From an uncultured Chroococcidiopsis sp. (GTDB taxonomy: Bacteria; Cyanobacteriota; Cyanobacteriia; Cyanobacteriales; Chroococcidiopsidaceae), in assembly GCA_964248365.1 (NCBI GenBank), contig CAXTYC010000061.1, forward strand, positions 1 through 15,137: DNA of 15,137 nt. Reading direction: 5' to 3'. Of the stretch, positions 699 to 14,453 are shown piece after piece. A model generated the notes under the pieces. It worked only from the letters and a program-made list of their open reading frames with translations. It was not told the DNA's origin and made no database searches. The position numbers and the translations under genes were made by a program. Positions within the stretch are counted from its first letter, which is position 1, and each line of letters opens with the position of its first letter.

Positions 699-2084
699 TT
701 AAGTTGACAATGCCTTAGCGCGCTTGTATACTTGCCCCATGATATAGGTGGCATGAATAGAGCGATCATCACCTAACACAATCGAGGTGAATAGTTGCTC
801 TGCTAGTGCTTCAATTGAGGTTGGCGTTACGTCTTTATTGCGCAATGCCAACAGATCGGTTGAGTGCAGATCCAAAACAATAAAATCTGCTTCTTTCCCA
901 GGCTCGAAGTTACCGATTTTATTATCCAAATTCAGCGCTCTAGCTCCTCCTAATGTTGCTAGAAAAAGAGCTTGAAAAGGGGATAGTTTTTGTCGTCGAA
1001 GTTGAGCAACTTTGTATGCTTCCAAAGCAGTTTGCAAGATAGAAAAGCTGGTTCCTGCTCCTACATCTGTTCCTAACCCCAATTTTACTGGATGTTCAAC
1101 GGATTTCGCTTGTTCAATTTTAAATAATCCACTACCTAAAAATAAGTTGGAAGTTGGGCAAAAGGCGATTGCTGCTTTTACTTCTGACAAACGTTGGAAC
1201 TCTTGATCGGTTAATTGTACGCCATGAGCAAATACAGAGCGATCGCGTACTAATCCCGCTTGCTCGTAAACATCTAAATAACCGCTACATTGGGGAAAAA
1301 GTTTTTTCACCCAAGCGACTTCTTCCTGATTTTCTGATAGGTGAGTGTGCAAATAAACATCAGGAAACTCATCTAACAATTTTCCGGCTAAGCGCAACTG
1401 CTCATCACTAGAGGTAATAGCAAATCTAGGCGTTACAGCATACAGTAAACGTCCCTTTTTATGCCATTTTTGAATCAGTTGTTTGCTTTGTTGATATGAC
1501 GATTCTGGTGTATCTTGAAGCGAGTCTGGAGCGTTTCGATCCATCATCACCTTACCTGCAATCATCCGCAGATTGCGGATGTGTGCTGACTCAAAAAAAG
1601 CCTCGACCGATTCTGGATAAACAGCAGCAAATACTAGCGCGGTTGTAGTTCCGTTTCTGAGCAACTCATCTAGAAAAATAGATGCTATTTTCTGAGCGTA
1701 AGCTTTATCTTTAAATTTTTGCTCGGTGGGAAAGGTATATTTAGTTAGCCATTCTAGAAGTTGTTCCCCGTATGCAGCAATCATTTCAGTTTGGGGAAAA
1801 TGAATATGTGTATCGATGAATCCAGGCATACACAACATTTTAGGATAAGCTGTGATTGGAATTCCTGAATATTTATCTTTCAAAAATTCATAGCTTCCCA
1901 GTTCTTTTACTTTGCCATTTTCTAAAATAAGTAATCCATCAAATATATAACGAACGCACTTTGTTTGAGACACATAAAATGGATCGTCAACAAAATCTAT
2001 AAAAGAACTGCGAAATGCTCGAAGGGAATTATTTGAAGATTGAACATTTAACATTTGTACGGGTAGGTTCACCAATAATTTCAA
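699..2084 (-). CDS. guaD: Guanine deaminase (amidohydrolase family); true start may be ATG at 2054
   Basis: Motifs PGFIDTHIHFPQ, GEQLLEWL..YTFP.E, NGTTTALVF, YAVTPRFA, HTHLSEN, FCPTSNLFLGSG, LGTDVGAGTS, ATLGGA and GKEADF. Confidence 0.95.
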   Translation of the reverse strand: MKLLVNLPVQMLNVQSSNNSLRAFRSSFIDFVDDPFYVSQTKCVRYIFDGLLILENGKVKELGSYEFLKDKYSGIPITAYPKMLCMPGFIDTHIHFPQTEMIAAYGEQLLEWLTKYTFPTEQKFKDKAYAQKIASIFLDELLRNGTTTALVFAAVYPESVEAFFESAHIRNLRMIAGKVMMDRNAPDSLQDTPESSYQQSKQLIQKWHKKGRLLYAVTPRFAITSSDEQLRLAGKLLDEFPDVYLHTHLSENQEEVAWVKKLFPQCSGYLDVYEQAGLVRDRSVFAHGVQLTDQEFQRLSEVKAAIAFCPTSNLFLGSGLFKIEQAKSVEHPVKLGLGTDVGAGTSFSILQTALEAYKVAQLRRQKLSPFQALFLATLGGARALNLDNKIGNFEPGKEADFIVLDLHSTDLLALRNKDVTPTSIEALAEQLFTSIVLGDDRSIHATYIMGQVYKRAKALST

Positions 2085-2123
2085 TTTACAACAAATAATT
2101 CAAATAAACTCGTACTTATTTTA

Positions 2124-3551
2124 TTATTTGTGGAAACGTACTGCCATAAATATGAAACGAGCGATAAAAATTCCGGCAATGATCCAGGTTCCGCGTGGTA
2201 CTTCGCTTGCTTTACCTTGAAAGGTTTTTATCAGTGGATAGGAAACAAAACCAAATGCTAACCCCTCAGCGATCGAGTAAGTTAACGGAATCATAAAAAT
2301 TGTCAAAAACGCTGGTATCGCCTCTGCCATATCCTCCCAGCGAATTTCTCTCACCTCAGCTAACATCATAGCTCCCACAATTACCAAGGTAGGTGTGGTT
2401 GCAAAGGCTGGAATAGCTTGAATAATCGGAATAAAAAACAAGGCAACGACAAATAATATAGCGACAACTAAAGCTGTAAATCCGGTGCGTCCTCCTTCCG
2501 CCACACCCGCGACAGATTCAACGTATGTCGTAACACTGGAAGTGCCAAACAATGGACCCACAGTTGTAGCCACTGCATCTGCCATTAGTGCTTTATTAGC
2601 TCGTGGAAGTTGACCATCAGCACCAATGTAACCTGCTCGCATTCCCACGCCTGTAAGTGTGCCGATTGTGTCAAAAATATCCACAAACAGAAAGACAAAC
2701 AAAACTGCTACCCAATTTACGAAGTTTTGGGCGTTGAGGTGAACTAGTCCGGCGATCGCTTGTCCAAATAGGTCTCTGGGAATTTCAGGTAGGGCAAATA
2801 CTCCTTTGGGTGGAGGCGAAACTGAAGTTATCCATGCTAATAAAGCTGTTGCCAAAATTCCGAAAAGTAAAGCACCTTTAACACGGCGCACGACAAAAGC
2901 AGACGTAATCAATAGCCCAATCACTGCTATCATCGTATTCGGTTGAGCGAGGCTACCAAAGCCTGTTTTTGTTGCTTCGTTGGCGACAATCAAACCCGCT
3001 CCACCTGTAGCCACATTGCCCGATAAACCGATATAGGCAATAAACATCCCAATACCGCCTGCGGTTGCGTGTTTGAGCGATGCTGGAATTGCTTCGATTA
3101 GCAAACGCCGAATATCGGTGAATGTGAGGATAATAAATATAATGCCTTGGATAAACACACAAGACAAGGCTAGCCGCCAATCGATCTTGAGTCCCAATAC
3201 CACAGAAAAGGCAAAAAAAGCGTTGGTTCCCATACCAGGAGCCAAACCGAAAGGATAGTTAGCAAATATTGCCATGCAGAACGTACCAACCGCCGCTGCA
3301 ATTACAGTTGCAACTGCCAATTGGGAGAATAAATCTCCTGATTTTTCTAAAAAGATAGCATTTGAAAGAATAATCGGGTTCACGACGAGGATGTAACCCA
3401 TTGTCATGAAAGTGGTTACACCCGCTAAAATCTCGGTTTTGAAATTGGTTTTGTAGAAATCAAACTGGAAAAAGTTGGCGAGTTTCGCCTGCCACCCAGT
3501 ATAAGATGGGTTTGGTGGGCTTGGTCTGTGAAATTCTAATTCATTACTCAT
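2124..3551 (-). CDS. NCS2-family (AzgA/PbuG/GhxP-like) guanine/hypoxanthine/adenine permease
   Basis: Motifs EILAGVTTFMTMGYILVVNP, APGMG.NAFFAF, DIFDTIGTL, GTSSVTTYVES.AGVAEGGRTG and PLTYSIAEG; many hydrophobic transmembrane segments. Confidence 0.93.
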   Translation of the reverse strand: MSNELEFHRPSPPNPSYTGWQAKLANFFQFDFYKTNFKTEILAGVTTFMTMGYILVVNPIILSNAIFLEKSGDLFSQLAVATVIAAAVGTFCMAIFANYPFGLAPGMGTNAFFAFSVVLGLKIDWRLALSCVFIQGIIFIILTFTDIRRLLIEAIPASLKHATAGGIGMFIAYIGLSGNVATGGAGLIVANEATKTGFGSLAQPNTMIAVIGLLITSAFVVRRVKGALLFGILATALLAWITSVSPPPKGVFALPEIPRDLFGQAIAGLVHLNAQNFVNWVAVLFVFLFVDIFDTIGTLTGVGMRAGYIGADGQLPRANKALMADAVATTVGPLFGTSSVTTYVESVAGVAEGGRTGFTALVVAILFVVALFFIPIIQAIPAFATTPTLVIVGAMMLAEVREIRWEDMAEAIPAFLTIFMIPLTYSIAEGLAFGFVSYPLIKTFQGKASEVPRGTWIIAGIFIARFIFMAVRFHK

Positions 3552-3661
3552 TTAAACTAAATTCCTCAAATTCTAATTACCCACTGGCTGGCAGTTTTTT
3601 AAGTATTTACTTATCTTGCATATTTTTTCGTTTTATGCTAAACAAATGTGAACGGCGATCG

Positions 3662-4711
3662 CTACGCCGTAAAAGATCGCCCCAGACCTAGTTTGGCTAA
3701 TCCCTTACGATACGCGATCGAGCTTTTATCACCTGCGATGTGTACTTCATCTTGCAGAACCAGCGGCAGATCTTCGGGATACTGCTGTTCTACAATTGCT
3801 TTATCTTCGGCAAACACTTGATGATTGAAATCAAGCGTGTCTTGTAGCGGAGCGTCTTTGTCAAAATTCCGGCAAATTGGCACAAATAGGCGGGTTTTCC
3901 GAGCAGAAATCGGTGAAGCTGCGTTGAGAATGTGAAGTTGTCCGTTGGGAAAGAAAACAGTCAGCTTTGCTGTGAACGGAAGCCAAACTTCAAACAGCCT
4001 GCGCCATAAAAAACCAGGGGGATTTCCATGCTTGAGGCTGAGCGGGTAATTGCTAACTGTGCTAACATAATCGGCACGGAATCCATGTGGGGTAGGCTCA
4101 ACTGAGTAATCTGGAACTTCTGGGTTATCAGGTTCACCAAACGAATCTGTGTGAATGAAAGCAAAATGACTGACATCAAGGAAACCTTCGACTTGACGAC
4201 CAGCCGCCGCATCCAAATCAACCTTATCAGGTAGAACACGAATATATTCTGGATCGTCCCACTCATTAAATTCGGGTAACTCGGTTAAACCGTCTACCAG
4301 CCGCACCCAAACTAATCCATAACGTTCGATCACACTAAAAGTCGTCAGTTTTAGTCTGGATGGAATAGCTGCATCGGGTTGAGCGGGAATGCAGGTACAT
4401 TGACCGTGCTTGTCATAGCGGACACCGTGATATCTACAGACAATTTCGTCATCCTCAACCCAACCAAGACTTAATGGCGCACCACGATGTAAACAGATAT
4501 CCCGTGCAGCAAAAACCGAACCAGATTTAAGCCGGAAAAGCACAATCCGCTCATCTAGCAGCCGCGCCGCATAAGGCTTGTTTGTAATTTCGTGGGAAAA
4601 AGCAACCGGATACCAAAACGGTGCAAGTGCTTTCCAATCGTTTTCACTAAAGGTGCAATTGCGCGGCAAGGTTATAGTTGAATTACCTGGTAATTCTTCA
4701 GTTTTATACAT
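3662..4711 (-). CDS. hpxD: Rieske non-heme iron oxygenase (VanA-like fold), probable HpxD-type (hypo)xanthine hydroxylase
   Basis: Rieske ligands CLH...CRYH, mononuclear iron motif EGFLDVSHFAFIH and distal FAED. Segments NCTF..DW, GRQVEGFLDV.HFA.IHTD, NAASP.S and DKSSIAYR.GL match my recollection of Klebsiella HpxD. The purine gene context agrees. The family call is firm; the symbol is tentative. Confidence 0.8.
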   Translation of the reverse strand: MYKTEELPGNSTITLPRNCTFSENDWKALAPFWYPVAFSHEITNKPYAARLLDERIVLFRLKSGSVFAARDICLHRGAPLSLGWVEDDEIVCRYHGVRYDKHGQCTCIPAQPDAAIPSRLKLTTFSVIERYGLVWVRLVDGLTELPEFNEWDDPEYIRVLPDKVDLDAAAGRQVEGFLDVSHFAFIHTDSFGEPDNPEVPDYSVEPTPHGFRADYVSTVSNYPLSLKHGNPPGFLWRRLFEVWLPFTAKLTVFFPNGQLHILNAASPISARKTRLFVPICRNFDKDAPLQDTLDFNHQVFAEDKAIVEQQYPEDLPLVLQDEVHIAGDKSSIAYRKGLAKLGLGRSFTA

Positions 4712-4747
4712 CGCTTGTATTTTAAAATAATATACTAATCGATGTTA

Positions 4748-4789
4748 AAGATATGACGTTTATATAAGGCTTTCTGTGTAATCAAATAC
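4748..4789 (-). promoter_or_regulatory. NtcA-activated promoter of the Rieske-permease-guaD operon
   Basis: Minus strand GTA-TTTGATTA-CAC (4789-4776, one mismatch to GTA-N8-TAC), then exactly 22 nt, then TATCTT (TAN3T, 4753-4748), 36 nt upstream of the ATG. Confidence 0.7.
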
Positions 4790-4824
4790 TTATTAATTTC
4801 CCAATATCTAAAATTCATCACAAC

Positions 4825-4981
4825 TATAGCAATCTTAGATGATTGGTAAAAATCTCTCATTAACTTTTATCTTTGCTTTCCTGGGGTTTAAACCCCAGGC
4901 TATGCGCCTAATCTACGAGAAGGCTACGCCAATGCGGTTCGTTAAAAAAGCCTATTTCACACATCAAATAGGCTCGCTATA
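4825..4981. mobile_element. Degenerate MITE-like dispersed repeat with nested palindrome
   Basis: Imperfect terminal inverted repeats TATAGCAATCTTAGATGATTGGTAAAA versus reverse-complemented TATAGCGAGCCTATTTGATGTGTGAAA (19/27 identical). Internal perfect 20-bp palindrome CCTGGGGTTTAAACCCCAGG at 4880-4899. Confidence 0.55.
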
Positions 4982-5118
4982 TAAGATAGCAGCAAGAAAT
5001 ACAAATACAATTTAATAGACGTGTTGCATAAGTATAATTTTCAGGCGGCATATACTGCACTTCAAGCCGCTTAAGCACTTGCTAGACACGAAGAAGATCG
5101 CTAATTCAGTAAAAAAAT

Positions 5119-5160
5119 GTATATGAATATACATAAGATCTATGTAAATTTTGCTAGTCT
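5119..5160 (+). promoter_or_regulatory. NtcA-activated promoter of the porin gene
   Basis: Perfect GTA-TATGAATA-TAC (5119-5132) within ATGTATAT..ATATACAT, preceded by an A-tract. After exactly 22 nt comes TAGTCT (5155-5160) with an extended TG. RBS GAGGA at 5191-5195. Confidence 0.85.
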
Positions 5161-5198
5161 GACGCTGCATTAAAATATGCTGACTGGTGTGAGGATAA

Positions 5199-7049
5199 AT
5201 GGGAAAATTGTTTTGGCAAGGATTGCTGATATATCTAAGTATATTGACATATAATTGCTGCACTGGTGCTGCGATCGCCACCGAAATTAATCACAACAAA
5301 GCAACTAACACCGATAAAATTCAAATTGATTCTATACTCTTAGCTCAGACAACGACATTAACACCATCCCCCGTCAAAGAATCAGAAGTAAATAATAGCT
5401 CAATGGCGCAAGTAACATCTGTGTCTCAATTATCAGATGTTCAACCCACAGATTGGGCATTTCTTGCACTACAGTCTTTAGTAGAACGATACGGTTGCAT
5501 TGCTGGGTATCCTGATAGCACTTTTCGAGGAAACCGTGCTTTAACAAGGTATGAATTTGCTGCTGGATTAAATAGCTGTTTAGAGCGAGTAAATGAACTA
5601 ATTGCAACAACCAACACAGTTAATAAACAAGATTTAATCATTATCCAACGGCTACAAAACGAATTCGCCGCCGAAATCACCACGTTGCGCGGTCGTGTAG
5701 ATGCTTTAGAAGCGCAAACAGCCGAATTAGAAGCAAACCAATTTTCGACCACAACTAAATTAACTGGTCTAGTTTGGGGTAATATCACTGGAGCTTTTGC
5801 AGATGGAGATGTTCGATTAGAGTCAGCAGATTTATCACCGCCTACTCGCTTTGGTGGAGTTGTAGCCAGAAGAGGAGGACGAAATGCAGCGACTGGTAGA
5901 CCTGTTATACAAACCAGAACAGATGATCCTAACATTACCTTTAGCGATCTTTTGTGGTTAAATTTTAATACCTCTTTTAGTGGTAAAGACAGCCTTGTAG
6001 TGCAGCTAGCAGCAGGTAACGGTGACTCTCCTGCTAATCAGTTTACATCAGCCGGTCTTTACAACACTTTTGGCGTACCTTTTTTTGACCAAACTGCTGG
6101 GATACAAGGACAGGGTAATAATGTGGTTATCCGCGAGTTATTTTACAGCTTTCCTGTTAGCAACACCTTTGAGGTAGTGGTAGGTCCTAGAATTAATTGG
6201 TATCGCTATTTTGATAATAACGCTTTTACATTTATTCTTACAGGGGCAAACAGTTTCAATTCTAATGGTAGTACGTTATTAAATGCAATTGATCGAGGTT
6301 CTGGAGCGGCGGTAATTTGGAAATTGAGTAAACAGTTGCGCTTTGCGGCTGCTTATTTAGGTGAAAATACAGAATTTTTATCCAGATCTATTGCACCTGG
6401 GTATAATACTGCTAGCGATCCAAATTTTGGGTTATTTGGTGGTACTTATACAGCAACAGCCGAGTTAACTTTTTCACCGAGCGATCGCTTTAACCTCAGA
6501 CTAATATATAATCGTTCTCGGATTCAACAAATTAACGGTGTAATTGGCGGTGCAACAGGAGAACCAATTTATGGAGTTGCAGACGATGGTGTATCAGCTA
6601 TTTTCGACCCTGCTACAGGTCAAGTAGCAAATGGTGGATTAGACAGTTCTACCGCTGATACTTATGGTGTTAATTTTGATTGGTTAATCGCTTCTGGCTT
6701 TGGGATTTTTGGGCGCTATACTTATGGTAGTACTCACCTCAAACCAATTGACGAAGATATTAATGCTCAAGCAGTTCAAGCGGGAATTGCCTTTCCTGAT
6801 TTAGGTAAAAAAGGAGCATTGTTAACACTTTCTTATGTCATCCCCTTCTCAATTTTGGACGGTCGGAATTTCTTGGTGTCTGGTGGTGGTAATGGTGGTG
6901 TACAATATGAATTTGAAGCAAATTACTACTTTCCACTAACTGATAATATTGCCCTTGTTCCAGCGTTTTACCTAATTGCCAACCCGAATAACTTCAGCGA
7001 CAACCCGAATATATATGTAGGAAATTTACGGGCGCAATTTAGTTTTTAA
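5199..7049 (+). CDS. Cyanobacterial outer-membrane porin, SLH + coiled coil + OprB-type barrel
   Basis: Signal peptide. MAQVTSVSQLSDVQPTDWAF.ALQSLVERYGCIAGYPD..FRGNRALTRYEFAAGLN is the SLH region, followed by LEANQFSTTTKL and a C-terminal RAQFSF beta-signal. Confidence 0.95.
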   Translation: MGKLFWQGLLIYLSILTYNCCTGAAIATEINHNKATNTDKIQIDSILLAQTTTLTPSPVKESEVNNSSMAQVTSVSQLSDVQPTDWAFLALQSLVERYGCIAGYPDSTFRGNRALTRYEFAAGLNSCLERVNELIATTNTVNKQDLIIIQRLQNEFAAEITTLRGRVDALEAQTAELEANQFSTTTKLTGLVWGNITGAFADGDVRLESADLSPPTRFGGVVARRGGRNAATGRPVIQTRTDDPNITFSDLLWLNFNTSFSGKDSLVVQLAAGNGDSPANQFTSAGLYNTFGVPFFDQTAGIQGQGNNVVIRELFYSFPVSNTFEVVVGPRINWYRYFDNNAFTFILTGANSFNSNGSTLLNAIDRGSGAAVIWKLSKQLRFAAAYLGENTEFLSRSIAPGYNTASDPNFGLFGGTYTATAELTFSPSDRFNLRLIYNRSRIQQINGVIGGATGEPIYGVADDGVSAIFDPATGQVANGGLDSSTADTYGVNFDWLIASGFGIFGRYTYGSTHLKPIDEDINAQAVQAGIAFPDLGKKGALLTLSYVIPFSILDGRNFLVSGGGNGGVQYEFEANYYFPLTDNIALVPAFYLIANPNNFSDNPNIYVGNLRAQFSF

Positions 7050-7140: not shown

Positions 7141-8295
7141 GGGAGCATATCAGTTTTGCAAGCCGATTAAGCCATTGAGGTAGGCACAACGATGTGCCAG
7201 CACTTGTGGAACATTTTCGCTATTCCACTGTGCGCCGGAAATTTGAATCCGGCGGTCAATCTGTTTGATGGCAGACTCAACAGTACCGGAACCAATGGCG
7301 CAAAGCTGTTCAGCTTGAAAGTAGTCATAATTGACAATGGGATGTTGGTGTTTGCGTAAATATTGACAAAAATTTTGTGCCTGTTTTTTCTGGCAATTCT
7401 CAAACAAGACTTGGGTATCATCCACCCGACCTTTCCACAGCAAGGCTTCCGCCTGCTTGAGGCGCTTGATTGACCCGCCCACCTGGAGAGAGATTTTCTT
7501 TGAGATGATACCAATTGAGAATTTCCTGTCGTTGGTTGCCTAGTGCAAGTTGCTGCACTATGTTCCAAACGCCATCATGCCCATCTCCCAGACAAGTGAT
7601 TGGATTACTCAGGGGTTGAGCATTCACCCATTCAATCAGTTGTGCATTATTTTGGAAGTTGGCGATGATGCCAGAGTCGGTGGCAATAGCTTTGTAGTCT
7701 CGCCATTGACAAGCAAGCTTGGGCGGGCGTGCGCCCAGCACCTTGCCGCCATCAACGCACAATTCCTCCAGGGGTTCATCGGCGTTAGGTAAGGGAAACG
7801 TCTGACGATGCACCAAACGCTGCTGGGTTTTGGCTGGAATGCGAATGCCTACCAGGTAAGCAATATCTTGTTCCGCTTGCGCGTAGGAGACATTCGCACT
7901 CAGGCGCTCTCCAGCAGTTTTCTAGATGCGGACTCAATTGGCGGTAAGATTGAACCGCTAGCTTCTGTGCTTGCCGAGTCGTGATTTCTATCTCCCCCAA
8001 GCTACTTTTCAGTCTTCGGCGCTTGCCTACTTGCGTTCCTGTGACAGTTTGGATAAAAAACGCCCTAATTCTGAACTCACATGCGTCTGGATTTGCTGCC
8101 GCACAGTCAATTCGATCCCTGAAGCGCGTTTTCATTGCTTCTCGATCGCTTTCGTCATATAAGATTTGAGCAATCGCTTTGAGGTGGGATTTGAGGGCTT
8201 GTTCTTGTTCGGGAGTCATAGGGGTGGCAGTTGCAACAATTGATTGTCTTGATCCTGAACGATTTTGGCTCACTGTGCAAAGGTGACATACTCCC
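7141..8295 (-). mobile_element. ISKra4-family insertion sequence (inactive)
   Basis: Terminal inverted repeats GGGAGCATATCAGTTTTGCA (7141-7160) and TGCAAAGGTGACATACTCCC (8276-8295), 16/20 match. AT lies on both flanks. Confidence 0.85.
7150..8219 (-). pseudogene. ISKra4 transposase with several frameshifts
   Basis: Fragments MTPEQEQALKSHLKAIAQILY, LCVDGGKV, CLGDGHDGVWN, WYHLKENL and IGSGTVESAIKQIDRRIQISGAQW are spread over different frames. Confidence 0.85.
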
Positions 8296-8503
8296 ATGTA
8301 TATATTTTAGGTTGAGTGCTATTTTTTGTTAGAATGACATCAGGATTTAATAAATCATATTTATCATACTCTTGCTCAGATATTAGTAGGCAATTATCAT
8401 AATCAGAAAACTTACCAGGAGGTAAGTTACATAAAACTACACCATTGTTTTGGATATTTTTTATTTGTCTTTTTCTGATTAGAGATTGATATAGCTTTTT
8501 CAT
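8296..8503 (-). pseudogene. Small AT-rich hypothetical gene interrupted by ISKra4
   Basis: GAGG RBS before ATG at 8503. The ORF reads into the IS end at 8295. A possible C-terminal continuation lies at 7138-7089. Confidence 0.4.
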
Positions 8504-8641: not shown

Positions 8642-10042
8642 TTAAACCAATACTGGGGTTTTTTGTGGTTGCCTTTGTGTTACCATCATCCGCATATTTG
8701 CTGGCGGAGCGACAGTTACCCCGCGACGAGTGGGTTTGATTTGGCGATCGCCAACCAATTTCAGTTCATAGCGTGACAGAATGGTAAACAGCACTAATTT
8801 CATTTCCAACAGAGCAAAGGCTGCTCCAATACAACGACGATTGCTGCCACCGAAGGGATAATACTCGTAGGGAGAAAATTGTCGTTCTAAAAAGCGCAGG
8901 GGTTTAAACCGCTTAGGTTCTGGGTAGATGTCCTCTCGTTGGTGAGTTAAATAAGTAGAAGCGAGTAGGATCGTACCCTTGTCAAACTGATACCCCATGA
9001 TCTCCATCGGTGCTGTTAAAATTCGTGGTAAGGGGTTTAAAGCAATTGGAAAGATTCGCAGCGTTTCATTACAAACTGCGCTTAGATAGGGTAGACGAGC
9101 AATCGCACTTGGATCTGCATCAGCATCAAGGGTATCAAGTTCCTTGTGCAGCTTTTCCCTAACTTCAGGTAGACGATCCACCCAGTAAAACGCCCACGCC
9201 AAGGCGGAAGCTGTAGTTTCATGTCCAGCAAACAGTAATGTGATTAATTCATCGCGCAATTCTTGATCGGTCATCGGCTGACCTGCCTCATCCCGCGCTT
9301 GTAGGAGTAAGCTGAGAATATCATCCCGCGCTGGAGACGCAAGATCTTGCATCTGTTGACGACGTGCTTGAATCTCAGCCATTAGCAGAGAGTCAATTTG
9401 CTGCTTCAACCGTAAGAAGCGTCCCCAAGGACTCCACGCGCCCCAATCTTTTTGTAGTGACCGAAAAAATAGTAAAGTAGAACTTACAGGAGAAGCAACC
9501 GAGTCTAACATTGACGTTAGCAGTTTTCTGAGTTGGTCATAACGCTCTCCTTCATACAGACCAAAAACAGTGCTGAGAATGACTCGCAGGGCGATTTCTT
9601 GTGTAGATGCACGGATAGTCACCGATTCACCTACTTTCCACCCACTAATGACGTGGTTGGTAATGTCACAAATTTGCTGTCCATAGGTGCGTAGGCGATC
9701 GCCATGAAACGGAGGCATTAGCAACTTACGCTGACGTTGATGCTTCATCCCGTCAAGTAAAAGCAATGAATTTACACCCACCAGTGGAATTAAAAGATCG
9801 TTTCCACTTCCGATCTCAAATAGTTCTGGATCAGCAGTCATAATCTGTTCAACTGCCTTTGGATGGCTAAAATACACCACTTGGGGCGATGTATTTTTTG
9901 AGACAACAAAAGGATCGCCATACTTCTTAGTACGCGCTTCTAAAACTTGCAAAGGGCGAAAAATCCACTGAATATAACTTAGCCTGCGAAGCAGATCTGA
10001 ACGGCTAGGACCATCAGGTAGTTTAATTGATGCTTGTGTCAT
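8642..10042 (-). CDS. Cytochrome P450, CYP110-like
   Basis: I-helix AGHETT, K-helix ETLR, heme motif PFGGSNRRCIG, and RKLLMPPFHG..L typical of cyanobacterial CYP110. Confidence 0.95.
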   Translation of the reverse strand: MTQASIKLPDGPSRSDLLRRLSYIQWIFRPLQVLEARTKKYGDPFVVSKNTSPQVVYFSHPKAVEQIMTADPELFEIGSGNDLLIPLVGVNSLLLLDGMKHQRQRKLLMPPFHGDRLRTYGQQICDITNHVISGWKVGESVTIRASTQEIALRVILSTVFGLYEGERYDQLRKLLTSMLDSVASPVSSTLLFFRSLQKDWGAWSPWGRFLRLKQQIDSLLMAEIQARRQQMQDLASPARDDILSLLLQARDEAGQPMTDQELRDELITLLFAGHETTASALAWAFYWVDRLPEVREKLHKELDTLDADADPSAIARLPYLSAVCNETLRIFPIALNPLPRILTAPMEIMGYQFDKGTILLASTYLTHQREDIYPEPKRFKPLRFLERQFSPYEYYPFGGSNRRCIGAAFALLEMKLVLFTILSRYELKLVGDRQIKPTRRGVTVAPPANMRMMVTQRQPQKTPVLV

Positions 10043-10100
10043 AAATTGTTGTTTTTAATATCTACTATCAAATTGCATTGTCTCCCCCTATTTCCCTATA

Positions 10101-10451
10101 TTAATTGGCAGGTGGATTACCAACTCGCTGATTTAATTCTCTCAATTGCTGATTCAACTCCCGCTGCCGTTTGATTAGAGCTTCAAAATCTGCCCTCGTT
10201 GCCCTATTGGTGTTGACTGGGAGAAGCTGATTTACTTGCTCTAAGCAAGCATTCAAAAGGGCAGCAAATTCATAACGAGCTGAGGAGCGATCGCCTTTGT
10301 AAGTACCATCAGGATACCCAGAAAGACAACGACCTTGAGGCAGATTCTCCTTAAAGGGGCTTGTTACTTGTGCCAGTGTAATTGAGGAAGAAAAGATAGT
10401 AGCCGCCAAACCTAGCCCAACTGCAAAAACCGCCTTTGTTAATAACTTCAT
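10101..10451 (-). CDS. Small secreted SLH-domain/coiled-coil protein
   Basis: Signal peptide ending ..ITLA-Q. CLSGYPDGTYKGDRSSARYEFAALLNACLEQVNQLL is SLH-like, followed by a heptad-rich tail. Confidence 0.8.
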   Translation of the reverse strand: MKLLTKAVFAVGLGLAATIFSSSITLAQVTSPFKENLPQGRCLSGYPDGTYKGDRSSARYEFAALLNACLEQVNQLLPVNTNRATRADFEALIKRQRELNQQLRELNQRVGNPPAN

Positions 10452-10508
10452 TTTCTTAGCGCCTTTACATCTATGCGCGAAACAAATCTAAAATTCTAAA
10501 TTCAAATG

Positions 10509-10599
10509 TAAGTAGGTGGACATAATTAAATGTAAAATGCGCTCCTACTTAAAACATGGCAGTAAAAGTTTTTCCCCTTTTCCCTTGTCCCTTCTACTT
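10509..10599. repeat. Collapsed MITE-like remnant with heptamer repeats
   Basis: TAAGTAGG (10509-10516) pairs with CCTACTTA (10544-10551). A second CTACTTA ends at 10599 after TTCCCCT/TTTCCCT/TGTCCCT heptamers. Confidence 0.35.
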
Positions 10600-10606
10600 A
10601 TAACCT

Positions 10607-11554
10607 TTAAATTCTTCTTTCTTGAAGAAAAGCATTGAAAGTCTCTCTATCGGGAATTGAAGATTGCGCCCCCCTTTTCGTTGCAGCCAAAGCACCCGCC
10701 GCCGCACCCCACACAACCGCTTCTTGTAAAGAAAGCCCTTCTACCAAACCTACTGCTAAACCACCATTAAACGCATCCCCAGCCGCTACTGTGTCAACAG
10801 CTGTAACCGAAAACGCAGGTACAAAAAAAGTTTGTGCAATTGTTGCACAATAAGCACCTTTAGCCCCCAATTTGACGATCGCACTTCCTACACCTCGTTG
10901 CAATAAAACATCTGCTGCTTGGGCGGCTGTGGAGGCATCATTTACAGCAAAACCAACCATACGCCCCGCCTCAGTTTCATTTGGTGTAATTATGTCAACC
11001 AATGAATAAAGTTCATCCGGTATATCCATAACAGCTGGTGCTGGATCTAAAATTACTTTGACTCCAGCTTGTTTTGCTACCTTTGTCGCAGATAAAACAG
11101 CACACATAGGTATCTCAAATTGTAGAAGTAATGCCGCAGATCCTGCTAACAAATTCTTCAGGCGTTCTACATCTGTCTGGTCCACACGCCCATTTGCCCC
11201 AGGAATGATAATAATCTGATTCTCTCCGATATCATCAACGGCGATCGCCGCAACGCCAGAACTAGTATTAGTATCAACTAACACATTGTCTGTATTTACT
11301 CCAGCACTTTGCAGACTATCGAGTAGTTCTGTTCCAAAACTTTCACCACCCACACGCCCTACCATTTGGGTAGACACTCCCAAACGTGCGATCGCCACTG
11401 CTTGATTTGCTCCTTTTCCTCCTGGTGCAGTAAAAAAATGTCGCCCCTGCAATGTTTCACCAGGAACAGGCAATCTGGGCGTTTTGGCAACCAAGTCCAT
11501 ATTGATGCTGCCAAATACCACCAGGGTGGGTTTAATTCCTTTCGCCTCAAGCAT
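10607..11554 (-). CDS. rbsK: Ribokinase (PfkB family)
   Basis: Motifs VFGSINMDLV, PGGKGANQAVA, GENQIIIIPGAN, ITPNETEA and VDTVAAGDAFNGG. Confidence 0.93.
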   Translation of the reverse strand: MLEAKGIKPTLVVFGSINMDLVAKTPRLPVPGETLQGRHFFTAPGGKGANQAVAIARLGVSTQMVGRVGGESFGTELLDSLQSAGVNTDNVLVDTNTSSGVAAIAVDDIGENQIIIIPGANGRVDQTDVERLKNLLAGSAALLLQFEIPMCAVLSATKVAKQAGVKVILDPAPAVMDIPDELYSLVDIITPNETEAGRMVGFAVNDASTAAQAADVLLQRGVGSAIVKLGAKGAYCATIAQTFFVPAFSVTAVDTVAAGDAFNGGLAVGLVEGLSLQEAVVWGAAAGALAATKRGAQSSIPDRETFNAFLQERRI

Positions 11555-12356: not shown

Positions 12357-12423
12357 TTCTTTGTGAAAGCAGTAGATTCAACTTGTCACGACAAATGCAA
12401 CCTTAGAGCCTGTTTGTAAATGA

Positions 12424-13282
12424 TTATGAAGTAATCGAAGAAGACTTTGTTAGTCGTTTCAACATTAAACGAATCATGACTGTATAAATCATAGATTCAC
12501 TGATTTCTGGTAAAAGTTCATAATCCTTACTCAGGCGACGGTATTGATTCCACCATGCAAATGTACGTTCGACAATCCAACGAGGCAATACTTGAAATCC
12601 AGGTTGAGTACGACAAATCACATCAACTTTAGCACTACATAATTGCCTCTCACGCGCTCAAAGTTCTTACCGCTAAAGCCTTGCACAACCCAAATCACAA
12701 CTAAATTTTCAGTGGCTTGTGCGGCTTCCATTACAACTGCTGCGCCGCCTAAACGTTCTGGAAAGTTGGCTTCTGTAACTATGGCAGCCAACACTAGTCC
12801 TAAAGTATCAACCAGAATAAAGCGTTTACGCCCCTTTACTTGTTTTCCACCGTCATAACCATATACCTCCCCTTTTTTTCTGCTGTCTTCACTGATTGGC
12901 TATCAATGATGGCGGCAGTTGGTTGTTCTTTTTTATTCATGGTTTCACGAACTTGGTATCGCAATTGTGTGTGAATTTCTTGCCATACTCCTAAACGTTG
13001 CCAATGACGAAAATAGTTATAAACGCTTTGCCAAGGTGGTAAGTCATGTGGCAATGCACGCCACGTACATCCCTCATGCAGAACGTAGAAAATTCCATTG
13101 AGAATTTCTCTTAAATCTACCGTTCGGACATCGGCGTGAGCAATCGGCGTGAGCTCGGTCGAACGCTCAGTTCACGGCGAAGCCTCACGGGGACGACCAA
13201 TGGGTTGTGAAGCGGGAAGTAAAGACTCTATAATTCCGCACTGTGTATCACTTACATCACTCGCGTACGCTTTACGTGTCAT
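12424..13282 (-). pseudogene. IS5 transposase, disrupted
   Basis: MTRKAYASD...GRPR, WRALPHDLPPWQSVY, IIDSQSVKT, slippery A7G4 near 12869-12879, GYDGGK.VKGRKR and [10 protein letters not shown]...RRLSKDYE. A 63-nt insertion carries a stop codon, and there is an extra frameshift near 12650. Confidence 0.88.
13127..13189. repeat. 63-nt nested short dispersed repeat inserted in the IS5 transposase
   Basis: Removing it restores GRP-RTVDLREILNGIFY in frame. It contains ATCGGCGTGAGC twice. Confidence 0.7.
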
Positions 13283-13633
13283 TATCGAACCATTACTCTA
13301 TCGCTTCATAATCAATTTTCATTTGTCGCGCTCGCCTTACTTTACTCTCTTTACATTTCTTTAGAGACAGCCTCTTACCAGAACTGCGGGGATGAGGCAA
13401 GCGATCGCCACAACAAAACCCAACTCAATTTTATTTAAGAGCTTATACCATTTTAGATTTAAAGATTATAAAACCCTTACTATACAATTGGTTTGCTGTA
13501 ATTCAAATATTGCACCAATAAAACCAAACGGTATTACCCAGCTAATTGGTAATAGATAATATAGGAATCATACTTGATTTTTGAAAAAGACTACAAGATA
13601 ATACCTCGAGTTACATCTGTCTAAGAGCGAACA

Positions 13634-14453
13634 ATGATAAACCAGCATCTACAAACCGCGATTGCAGAACTACAAGAATTTATAGATGCTCGCCCAGATG
13701 CACGTGAGGTAAGGAAAGCGTTGGCAGTCAAACTGGTTTATCAAGGCTACAAGTATGAGGAAATTCAAACAATTTTAGATGTATCACTTGGTTCGATAAT
13801 AGGCTGGAAGCAAACCTAGGAAGAATATGGAATTTCGGGACTACACCTGAACCATAAGGGAAGGAAAAGTTACTTAAGTGCAGGGCAACGAGAAGAAGTA
13901 TTAGGTTGGTTACAAACAAAAGCAAGTTGGGAAAGCGAACTTGAATATAAATTGGCTTTTGAATATGACGTAACTTATGAGTCAAAACGCAGCTATTACA
14001 ACTTGTTTGAAGCGGCAGGAATTAGTTGGAAAAAAACTACCTCTTTACATTTAGCGCCAAAAATAATTACCGGTCCGTCACAATAGATCTCCCGACTCAG
14101 ACAGATAAACTTCAACACACGGACCGGTAATTATTTTCAAGCTTCCTTTTTGAATCCAAAAGCTGACGAGGACGCTGTTGCTGAAAAAAAAAGAGATTTC
14201 TTGACTGTTGGCAAGTCGCCGAGAAGAAATAGAAGCAGGGCTATTGAGAGTTTTGCTACTTGCTCCCAACTATCCTTCCCAAAACCCTATAGAAGATATC
14301 TGGTTGCAAGCCAAAACTTGGGTTCGACGTTTGTGTGCTTTAATTCCAACATTCGCTCATTTAAAGTGGATGTTTGAGTGGTTTATTAAAAACACTACCT
14401 TTGATTTTATGGCTCTTCAGATGTACGGAGCTTTTTCAAAAATCAAATATTAG
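13634..14453 (+). pseudogene. IS630 transposase remnant
   Basis: HTH N-terminus with a premature TAG at 13817, then GISWKKT and an A9 slippery run at 14184-14192. C-terminal APNYPSQNPIEDIWLQAK is joined directly to LLRVLL, so the catalytic middle is missing. Confidence 0.85.
14045..14149. mobile_element. 105-nt non-autonomous insertion with a 19-bp subterminal inverted repeat
   Basis: Perfect inverted repeat AAAATAATTACCGGTCCGT (14060-14078) / ACGGACCGGTAATTATTTT (14119-14137). Removing the segment restores WKKTTS-LNPKADED in frame. Confidence 0.7.

Follow-up and report, generated by a model that had tools for sequence, protein, structure and literature searches.

A candidate NtcA-controlled, molybdenum-independent purine-scavenging module in an uncultured Chroococcidiopsis

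How might a cyanobacterium without a molybdenum xanthine dehydrogenase take up purines and oxidize them as a nitrogen source? The question is raised by a 15,137-nucleotide stretch of an uncultured Chroococcidiopsis sp. (contig CAXTYC010000061.1, assembly GCA_964248365.1; hereafter the window), which carries a module of four intact genes. On the minus strand lie guaD, encoding an amidohydrolase-type guanine deaminase (699-2084, 461 aa, TTG start with an alternative ATG at 2054), a gene for an AzgA-type NCS2 nucleobase permease (2124-3551, 475 aa, PF00860) and a gene for a mononuclear-iron oxygenase of the HpxD clade, here named Rieske A, a predicted xanthine/hypoxanthine hydroxylase with Rieske and VanA_C domains (3662-4711, 349 aa). 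The gaps are 39 nt (guaD-permease) and 110 nt (permease-Rieske A). A divergent spacer of 487 nt separates Rieske A from a plus-strand gene (5199-7049, 616 aa, NF033921) for a cyanobacterial SLH-OprB porin, whose clade is often met in purine/urate clusters. The open reading frame coordinates agree with the layout given in the earlier note on this DNA, three co-oriented genes and a divergent porin, and its naming of the four products is borne out by family models and structure matches.

We consider it likely, from sequence comparison, that these genes form the uptake-and-oxidation front end of a molybdenum-independent purine-scavenging pathway of the Klebsiella hpx type, used under nitrogen starvation and controlled by NtcA. 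In such a scheme, the prediction is that NtcA activates transcription in both directions when nitrogen is scarce, and the minus-strand genes would be co-transcribed. The porin and the AzgA permease would import guanine, hypoxanthine or xanthine, and GuaD would convert guanine to xanthine with release of ammonia. Rieske A, the HpxD orthologue, would then oxidize xanthine to urate without molybdenum, with electrons probably supplied by a plant-type ferredoxin. Urate would be passed on to HpxO, 5-hydroxyisourate (HIU) hydrolase, 2-oxo-4-hydroxy-4-carboxy-5-ureidoimidazoline (OHCU) decarboxylase, PuuE and allantoate amidohydrolase, all encoded in a cluster on contig C15 of the same genome, and finally to urease, so that the host might grow on purines.

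By sequence, Rieske A is an orthologue of HpxD. It shares 52% identity across 340 aa with the NCBI-annotated HpxD of Klebsiella pneumoniae, whose gene is located in a uraH-uraD-permease-hpxO-hpxR-hpxD cluster, and annotated plasmid records give full-length matches at 50-57%, many of them named molybdenum cofactor-independent xanthine hydroxylase HpxD. Two trees, each a quick search on a subset of 45 or 38 rows (one with just 2 rows of Rieske B, a second oxygenase described below), group Rieske A with Klebsiella HpxD in one clade (Shimodaira-Hasegawa-like approximate likelihood ratio support 98), and set the caffeine-cluster Rieske proteins and Rieske B apart. The Rieske ligands (C73/H75/C92/H95), the bridging D179 and the iron ligands (H182/H187/D303) are invariant with Klebsiella HpxD. 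It should be noted that no curated HpxD model matched even Klebsiella HpxD at E 1e-30. According to passages of two papers, hpxDE take hypoxanthine via xanthine to urate as a nitrogen source (PMC7373994; PMC13751858). The HpxD orthology lends support to the predicted guanine to xanthine to urate route that the earlier note had put forward.

The other three products are identified as follows. GuaD scores 589 bits against TIGR02967 (cut-off 375), also exceeds the cut-off of PRK09228 and is matched by the E. coli GuaD structure 6ohb at E 1e-157; its metal and catalytic motifs are present (HIH 93-95, HTHLSE 246-251 and GTDVG 338-342). The permease belongs to Xan_ur_permease and gave no match to the UapA/ncs2 models of NCBIfam. 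Its sole relatives in the PDB are AZG1/AZG2, and hence it is nearer to these than to the UapA/XanQ type. The porin carries an SLH domain and an OprB barrel, with a score of 371 against NF033921 (cut-off 100).

An NtcA-type motif is found in each direction of the spacer, as had been claimed before. On the hpxD-azgA-guaD side (4748-4789, minus strand), a GTAN8CAC variant of the box (4789-4776) is followed after 22 nt by the -10 element TATCTT (4753-4748). On the porin side (5119-5160, plus strand), TGTA-N8-TACA, with GTAN8TAC at 5119-5132, is followed after 22 nt by TAGTCT (5155-5160). Transcription would accordingly start near 4741 on the minus strand and near 5167 on the plus strand. The class II NtcA consensus is given as GTAN8TAC plus TAN3T in part of PMC3898017. 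Bare boxes are no commoner in the window than chance predicts (2 against 2.27 expected). Among 2000 dinucleotide shuffles of the spacer, the plus-strand site arose in 0.15%, the minus-strand site in 1.05% and both in none; with a looser site definition, both directions were occupied in 7.5%. Since these definitions were chosen after the sequence was seen, the cross-genome footprint is the stronger test. An NtcA-type motif stands upstream of 33 of the 44 cyanobacterial orthologues of Rieske A (2.5 expected), versus none of the 35 non-cyanobacterial ones, when a box with at most 1 mismatch, a spacing of 21-23 nt, TAN3T and a position within 250 nt upstream are required; L082 (102 nt upstream) was left out and L022, which has no taxon name, was counted as cyanobacterial. 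Many of these rows are kin, yet 6 named families are included.

For the porin clade, 14 of 27 loci have the motif upstream, against an expectation of 4.4. An exact box was found for 2 of the 8 host porins, both members of the clade of the window porin, and a near-identical box precedes the orthologous porin at all four same-genus loci. The motif is not enriched before guaD (3/32, 4.5 expected), azgA (1/14) or Rieske B (2/21), which is consistent with internal operon positions and lends no support. Across the host genome, the exact box with TAN3T shows no clear peak at a spacing of 22 nt (59 versus 35-67 at other spacings), and the extended TGT..ACA form peaks there (25 versus 8-20 elsewhere). 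Scans of the window for sigma-70 promoters (17 versus 17.2) and terminators (8 versus 5.6) remained at chance level, and an Rfam scan of it gave no match, and thus no xanthine or purine riboswitch. The host ntcA gene scores over its cut-off. From these motifs, the module is probably under NtcA control.

The urate and allantoin genes, which the earlier note had placed outside the window, are located on contig C15. This contig carries genes for allantoate amidohydrolase, GntR, a small GGCT-like protein, a porin, a UapA-type permease, HpxO, HIU hydrolase, Rieske B, OHCU decarboxylase and PuuE. The hpxO, uraH, uraD and puuE genes exceed their model cut-offs, HpxO being 48% identical to that of Klebsiella, and the allantoate amidohydrolase is assigned to family level. 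The layout echoes that of the window: the porin and permease genes are divergent, and each has an NtcA-type motif on its side. A urease is also present in the host. Later enzymes for which the earlier note had proposed a search are thus there; in this genome, 99.97% complete, no uricase, no XdhB and no molybdenum-cofactor-binding domain of the Xdh family were found. The small gene with likeness to the allophanate hydrolase C-terminus and GGCT (L002:2041-2448, plus strand) recurs in 7 other urate-cluster loci and may serve a late ureide step. A phosphoribosyltransferase gene (L213:1483-2001), with no NCBIfam match at 1e-15, presumably resembles Gpt; if so, part of the imported guanine could be salvaged.

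How would Rieske A receive its electrons? Three HpxE-type reductase queries against the host genome matched plant-type ferredoxins alone and no HpxE, and PetH is the one NAD_binding_1 protein that the genome encodes. Against the fetched loci, matches to these queries were confined to proteobacteria, and none fell in the 80 closest orthologue loci. Because the host has no HpxE-type reductase, Rieske A would need an outside donor, and a plant-type ferredoxin is the likely one. Part of a review describes NdmA as fed by a plant-type ferredoxin domain. The entry route claimed earlier is therefore not self-contained, and the purine specificity of its porin is a proposal. Elsewhere, 9 of the 80 loci, mostly verrucomicrobial (L006-L008, L048, L057, L060, L063, L078 and L081), join hpxD and uricase to a conserved class III aminotransferase gene, without a reductase. 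In a Paraburkholderia locus (L084:8034-9379), hpxD is followed by genes for a rubredoxin and an FAD oxidoreductase, not by hpxE, a third donor arrangement.

Gene neighbourhoods point in part to purine catabolism. The survey covered the 80 loci of the closest orthologues, out of 181 found; purine-catabolic neighbours occur in 24 of them (uricase 14, guaD 10, allantoinase 8, azgA 7 with one partial, uraD 6, uraH 6). The guaD gene adjoins the orthologue in 10 cyanobacterial loci and uricase in 14 non-cyanobacterial ones (Verrucomicrobia, Acidobacteria). These are the enzymes directly before and after the xanthine step, so that two lineages point to the same slot of the pathway. On a Pseudomonas plasmid, the orthologue adjoins hpxO. 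The co-oriented order with a whole azgA was found again in one locus of the 80 (L003), and guaD is convergent in 5 Microcoleus loci. In L031 and L074, from a planctomycete and an acidobacterium, two HpxD-clade genes stand in tandem, the second copy being 53% identical to the window Rieske A.

Co-occurrence points the same way. In a sample of 301 genomes of the phylum, the Rieske A gene is found in 11 and uraD in 49 (29 within the class of the host). Ten of the 11 carriers have uraD; the exception (G062) lacks guaD, and its Rieske A gene is broken into three frames. In a separate set of 30 genomes with the orthologue, uraD is present in 29, versus 49/301 in the phylum sample. The guaD gene accompanies an intact Rieske A gene in 18 of 20 cyanobacterial handles (13/15 and 5/5), some of which are the same genome twice. 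XdhB is present in 8 of the 29 uraD-positive genomes of the class. The 21 without it comprise 5 with Rieske A only, 10 with Rieske B only, 1 with both (the host), 2 with weaker Xdh-like matches and 3 with none of these. G002, G093 and G155 are uraD-positive and have neither Rieske nor XdhB at the thresholds used; G155 also has guaD and azgA. Same-genus genomes have guaD, urate genes and an XdhB-type enzyme, and lack both Rieske genes.

Several points weigh against the proposed scheme. An identity of 52% leaves the substrate of Rieske A unfixed, and the name HpxD is itself an NCBI annotation. Rieske B, inside the host urate cluster, could perform the xanthine step. XdhB also scores over cut-off in 14 of 22 named cyanobacterial carriers of Rieske A, and the idea that Rieske A strictly replaces Xdh was rejected for this reason. 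No purine gene lies inside the fetched flank at 56 of the 80 orthologue loci. Wide conservation of the four-gene order was likewise rejected: the porin is beside none of these 80 more distant orthologues, the four-gene layout was seen again in near relatives alone, and at 4/4 same-genus loci the porin orthologue is solitary and has its own NtcA box. The host gave no match to an AllE-type enzyme, which leaves the late steps incomplete. Contigs from one RNA library span all four genes, but they include the promoter too and so do not demonstrate transcription. Finally, relatives do not make independent cases in any of these counts.

The presence of both Rieske proteins in the host raises the possibility of a division of labour, in which the main substrate oxidized by Rieske A would be hypoxanthine or some other purine upstream, with Rieske B converting xanthine to urate. 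Rieske B (C15:86522-87616 of the host genome G000, minus strand, equal to L002:8523-9617) is 35% identical to Rieske A and 29% to HpxD, forms its own clade and occurs in 21 of 301 genomes. It lies inside urate clusters (hpxO/uraH/uraD/puuE) at 8 of 20 fetched loci, and the retention of Rieske A beside XdhB in the carriers mentioned above would also agree with an upstream role. However, each protein usually works alone, since one of the 21 XdhB-less genomes has both, and Rieske A genes are found next to guaD, whose enzyme makes xanthine, and next to the gene for uricase, which consumes urate. A division of labour consequently appears improbable. Rieske B is, from its sequence and context, a candidate new purine hydroxylase family. 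Several of its urate-cluster loci hold an 8-oxoguanine-deaminase-like gene, one over cut-off; the host has no such gene over cut-off. In L127-L130 (G017, G291, G011 and G231), B-like Rieske genes occur as tandem pairs that form two sister clades, some near NMT1-type ABC transporter genes and GntR; these pairs are possibly two-subunit oxygenases.

It is still less probable, to the point of being very unlikely, that Rieske A is an N-demethylase of methylated purines like the caffeine N-demethylases NdmA/NdmB of Pseudomonas putida CBB5, acting for instance on 7-methylxanthine derived from 7-methylguanine and leaving xanthine to another oxidase. Such a role would suit its coexistence with XdhB. 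In the PDB, NdmA is the top match by sequence (E 7e-53); N296/F300 of Rieske A align with N282/F286 of NdmA, positions with a role in NdmA selectivity. However, Klebsiella HpxD has the same N and F, and NdmA leads by default, as no HpxD structure was found among the PDB entries. An AlphaFold 2 (AF2) model of Rieske A (mean predicted local distance difference test 86.8) matches Rieske oxygenases at template modelling (TM) scores of about 0.8, the closest folds being SxtT/GxtA (TM 0.82-0.84) and NdmA, at 29-34% identity. Moreover, Rieske A is 33-36% identical to the two caffeine-cluster Rieske proteins, versus 52% to HpxD, from which they fall in a separate clade, and no NdmD-type reductase was found in the host genome.

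The role of the porin bears on the last alternative. The window porin is 64% identical to the porin of the C15 urate cluster, versus 31-38% to six other host porins. Of 301 genomes, 39 have a member of its clade, among them 24 of the 29 uraD-positive ones of the class, in a census that scored four candidates per genome. It lies inside purine clusters at 5/20 Rieske B loci, at 7/20 porin loci (several of them picked for closeness to uraD) and at 4/4 family-level urate loci. This alternative, as unlikely as the demethylase, is that the three minus-strand genes serve to recycle internal purines, or to supply salvage, when nitrogen is short, beside a general nitrogen-starvation channel sharing the promoter region. 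It would fit the solitary same-genus porins, the 15/39 porin-clade genomes in which uraD was not found, the 13/20 porin loci without a purine gene by the queries used and the location of the same-genus AzgA with adenine deaminase and HPRT. Against it, an importer would be superfluous for recycling, those two enzymes were not found in the host, the clade is tied to uraD and purine clusters as described, and the porin-hpxD linkage was found again in three metagenome studies. From its distribution, the clade is best read as one of porins for nitrogen starvation with a strong link to purine use, purine selectivity being proposed; that the window porin is not purine-selective is nearly an even call.

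Returning to an NtcA-controlled, HpxD-based uptake and oxidation of purines, its chemistry is known from Klebsiella hpx, and what would be new is the wiring in cyanobacteria, by NtcA and probably ferredoxin. Both systems have HpxD, HpxO, an NCS2 permease, uraH, uraD and PuuE. Unlike Klebsiella, the host lacks hpxE and has NtcA-type promoters instead of an adjacent LysR gene hpxR (an HpxR search of the host returned just LysR matches at 23-26%, on other contigs); its hpxD is grouped with guaD, azgA and the porin, its pathway is spread over two divergent porin/permease units, and it has Rieske B in addition. The molybdenum xanthine dehydrogenase route (XdhAB, B. subtilis puc, SAR11) performs the identical overall conversion, with the difference that XdhB is absent from the host genome. 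Xdh yields NADH, and a Rieske hydroxylase consumes reductant and O2. The Xdh route is nitrogen-regulated in B. subtilis, as described in part of PMC13751858. The NtcA-controlled units urt, nir and glnA share the class II promoter and differ in cargo, which is here purines. SxtT/GxtA are also cyanobacterial and hydroxylate heterocycles, but share 29-32% identity with Rieske A, whose context is purine catabolism.

A search of the literature, which covered few subscription journals and excluded supplements (NtcA target tables), gave no paper for cyanobacteria on hpxD or on a purine operon under NtcA control. According to older physiology papers, uric acid or other purines support the growth of some cyanobacteria, and the purine-growth phenotype itself is probably not new. 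In the parts of PMC11698098 that bear on cross-feeding, cyanobacteria figure mostly as donors of purines. A subset of them, among which are Microcoleus from soil crusts and Pseudanabaena from fresh water, seems wired to take purines back as nitrogen. Tentatively, and as a possibility rather than an expectation, a light-powered, molybdenum-free purine harvest may be proposed for cyanobacteria, which would combine a ferredoxin-fed HpxD, Rieske B filling the step in 10 of the 21 XdhB-less genomes, a dedicated NtcA-controlled porin clade, and gain or loss of the block among close relatives. If true, a cyanobacterial porin would gain an organic-nitrogen substrate; the functions of these porins are described as poorly defined in a passage of PMC9705863. 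The genes supplied here are an HpxD that lacks its reductase, a Rieske family that occurs in urate clusters, and a clade of porins for which a class of substrates can be proposed. A route without molybdenum would matter where this metal is scarce.

At its right edge, the module is bordered by a fragmented remnant of an ISKra4-family transposase (7150-8297, minus strand), with partial matches to NF033572, below cut-off, at 7150-7482 and 7418-7816 and none for 7785-8297. The junction between the 5' ends of hpxD and the porin gene is spanned by metagenome contigs from sequencing runs X3, X4, X8 and X12, which belong to three studies; others bridge guaD-azgA (X3) and azgA-hpxD (X4, X5). In X3, X4 and X5, also from three studies, further contigs connect window position 457 to 8297/8548 without the module or the remnant; they are about 87-92% alike to the window and may come from another species. 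What the contigs show is that near relatives either have or lack the block at this site; they do not show how it moved. There was no support for a recent transfer from a donor of foreign composition, the GC content at third codon positions (GC3) being 0.27-0.38 versus 0.38 +/- 0.05 for the genome. The shares of the sequencing runs were all below 0.2, with no near-identical RNA run. A repeat search of the window gave nothing notable. Positions 4820-4985 of the spacer hold short repeats with copies on several other host contigs, and the spacer is shorter in relatives. Further along the window, genes for a cytochrome P450, a short SLH-like protein and a ribokinase occupy 8642-11554 (minus strand); the ribokinase, near just 1 of the 80 orthologue loci, was for this reason left out of the module. 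More broken transposase-like sequence lies at 12400-14450, of which 12451-13051 is multi-copy in one same-genus genome.

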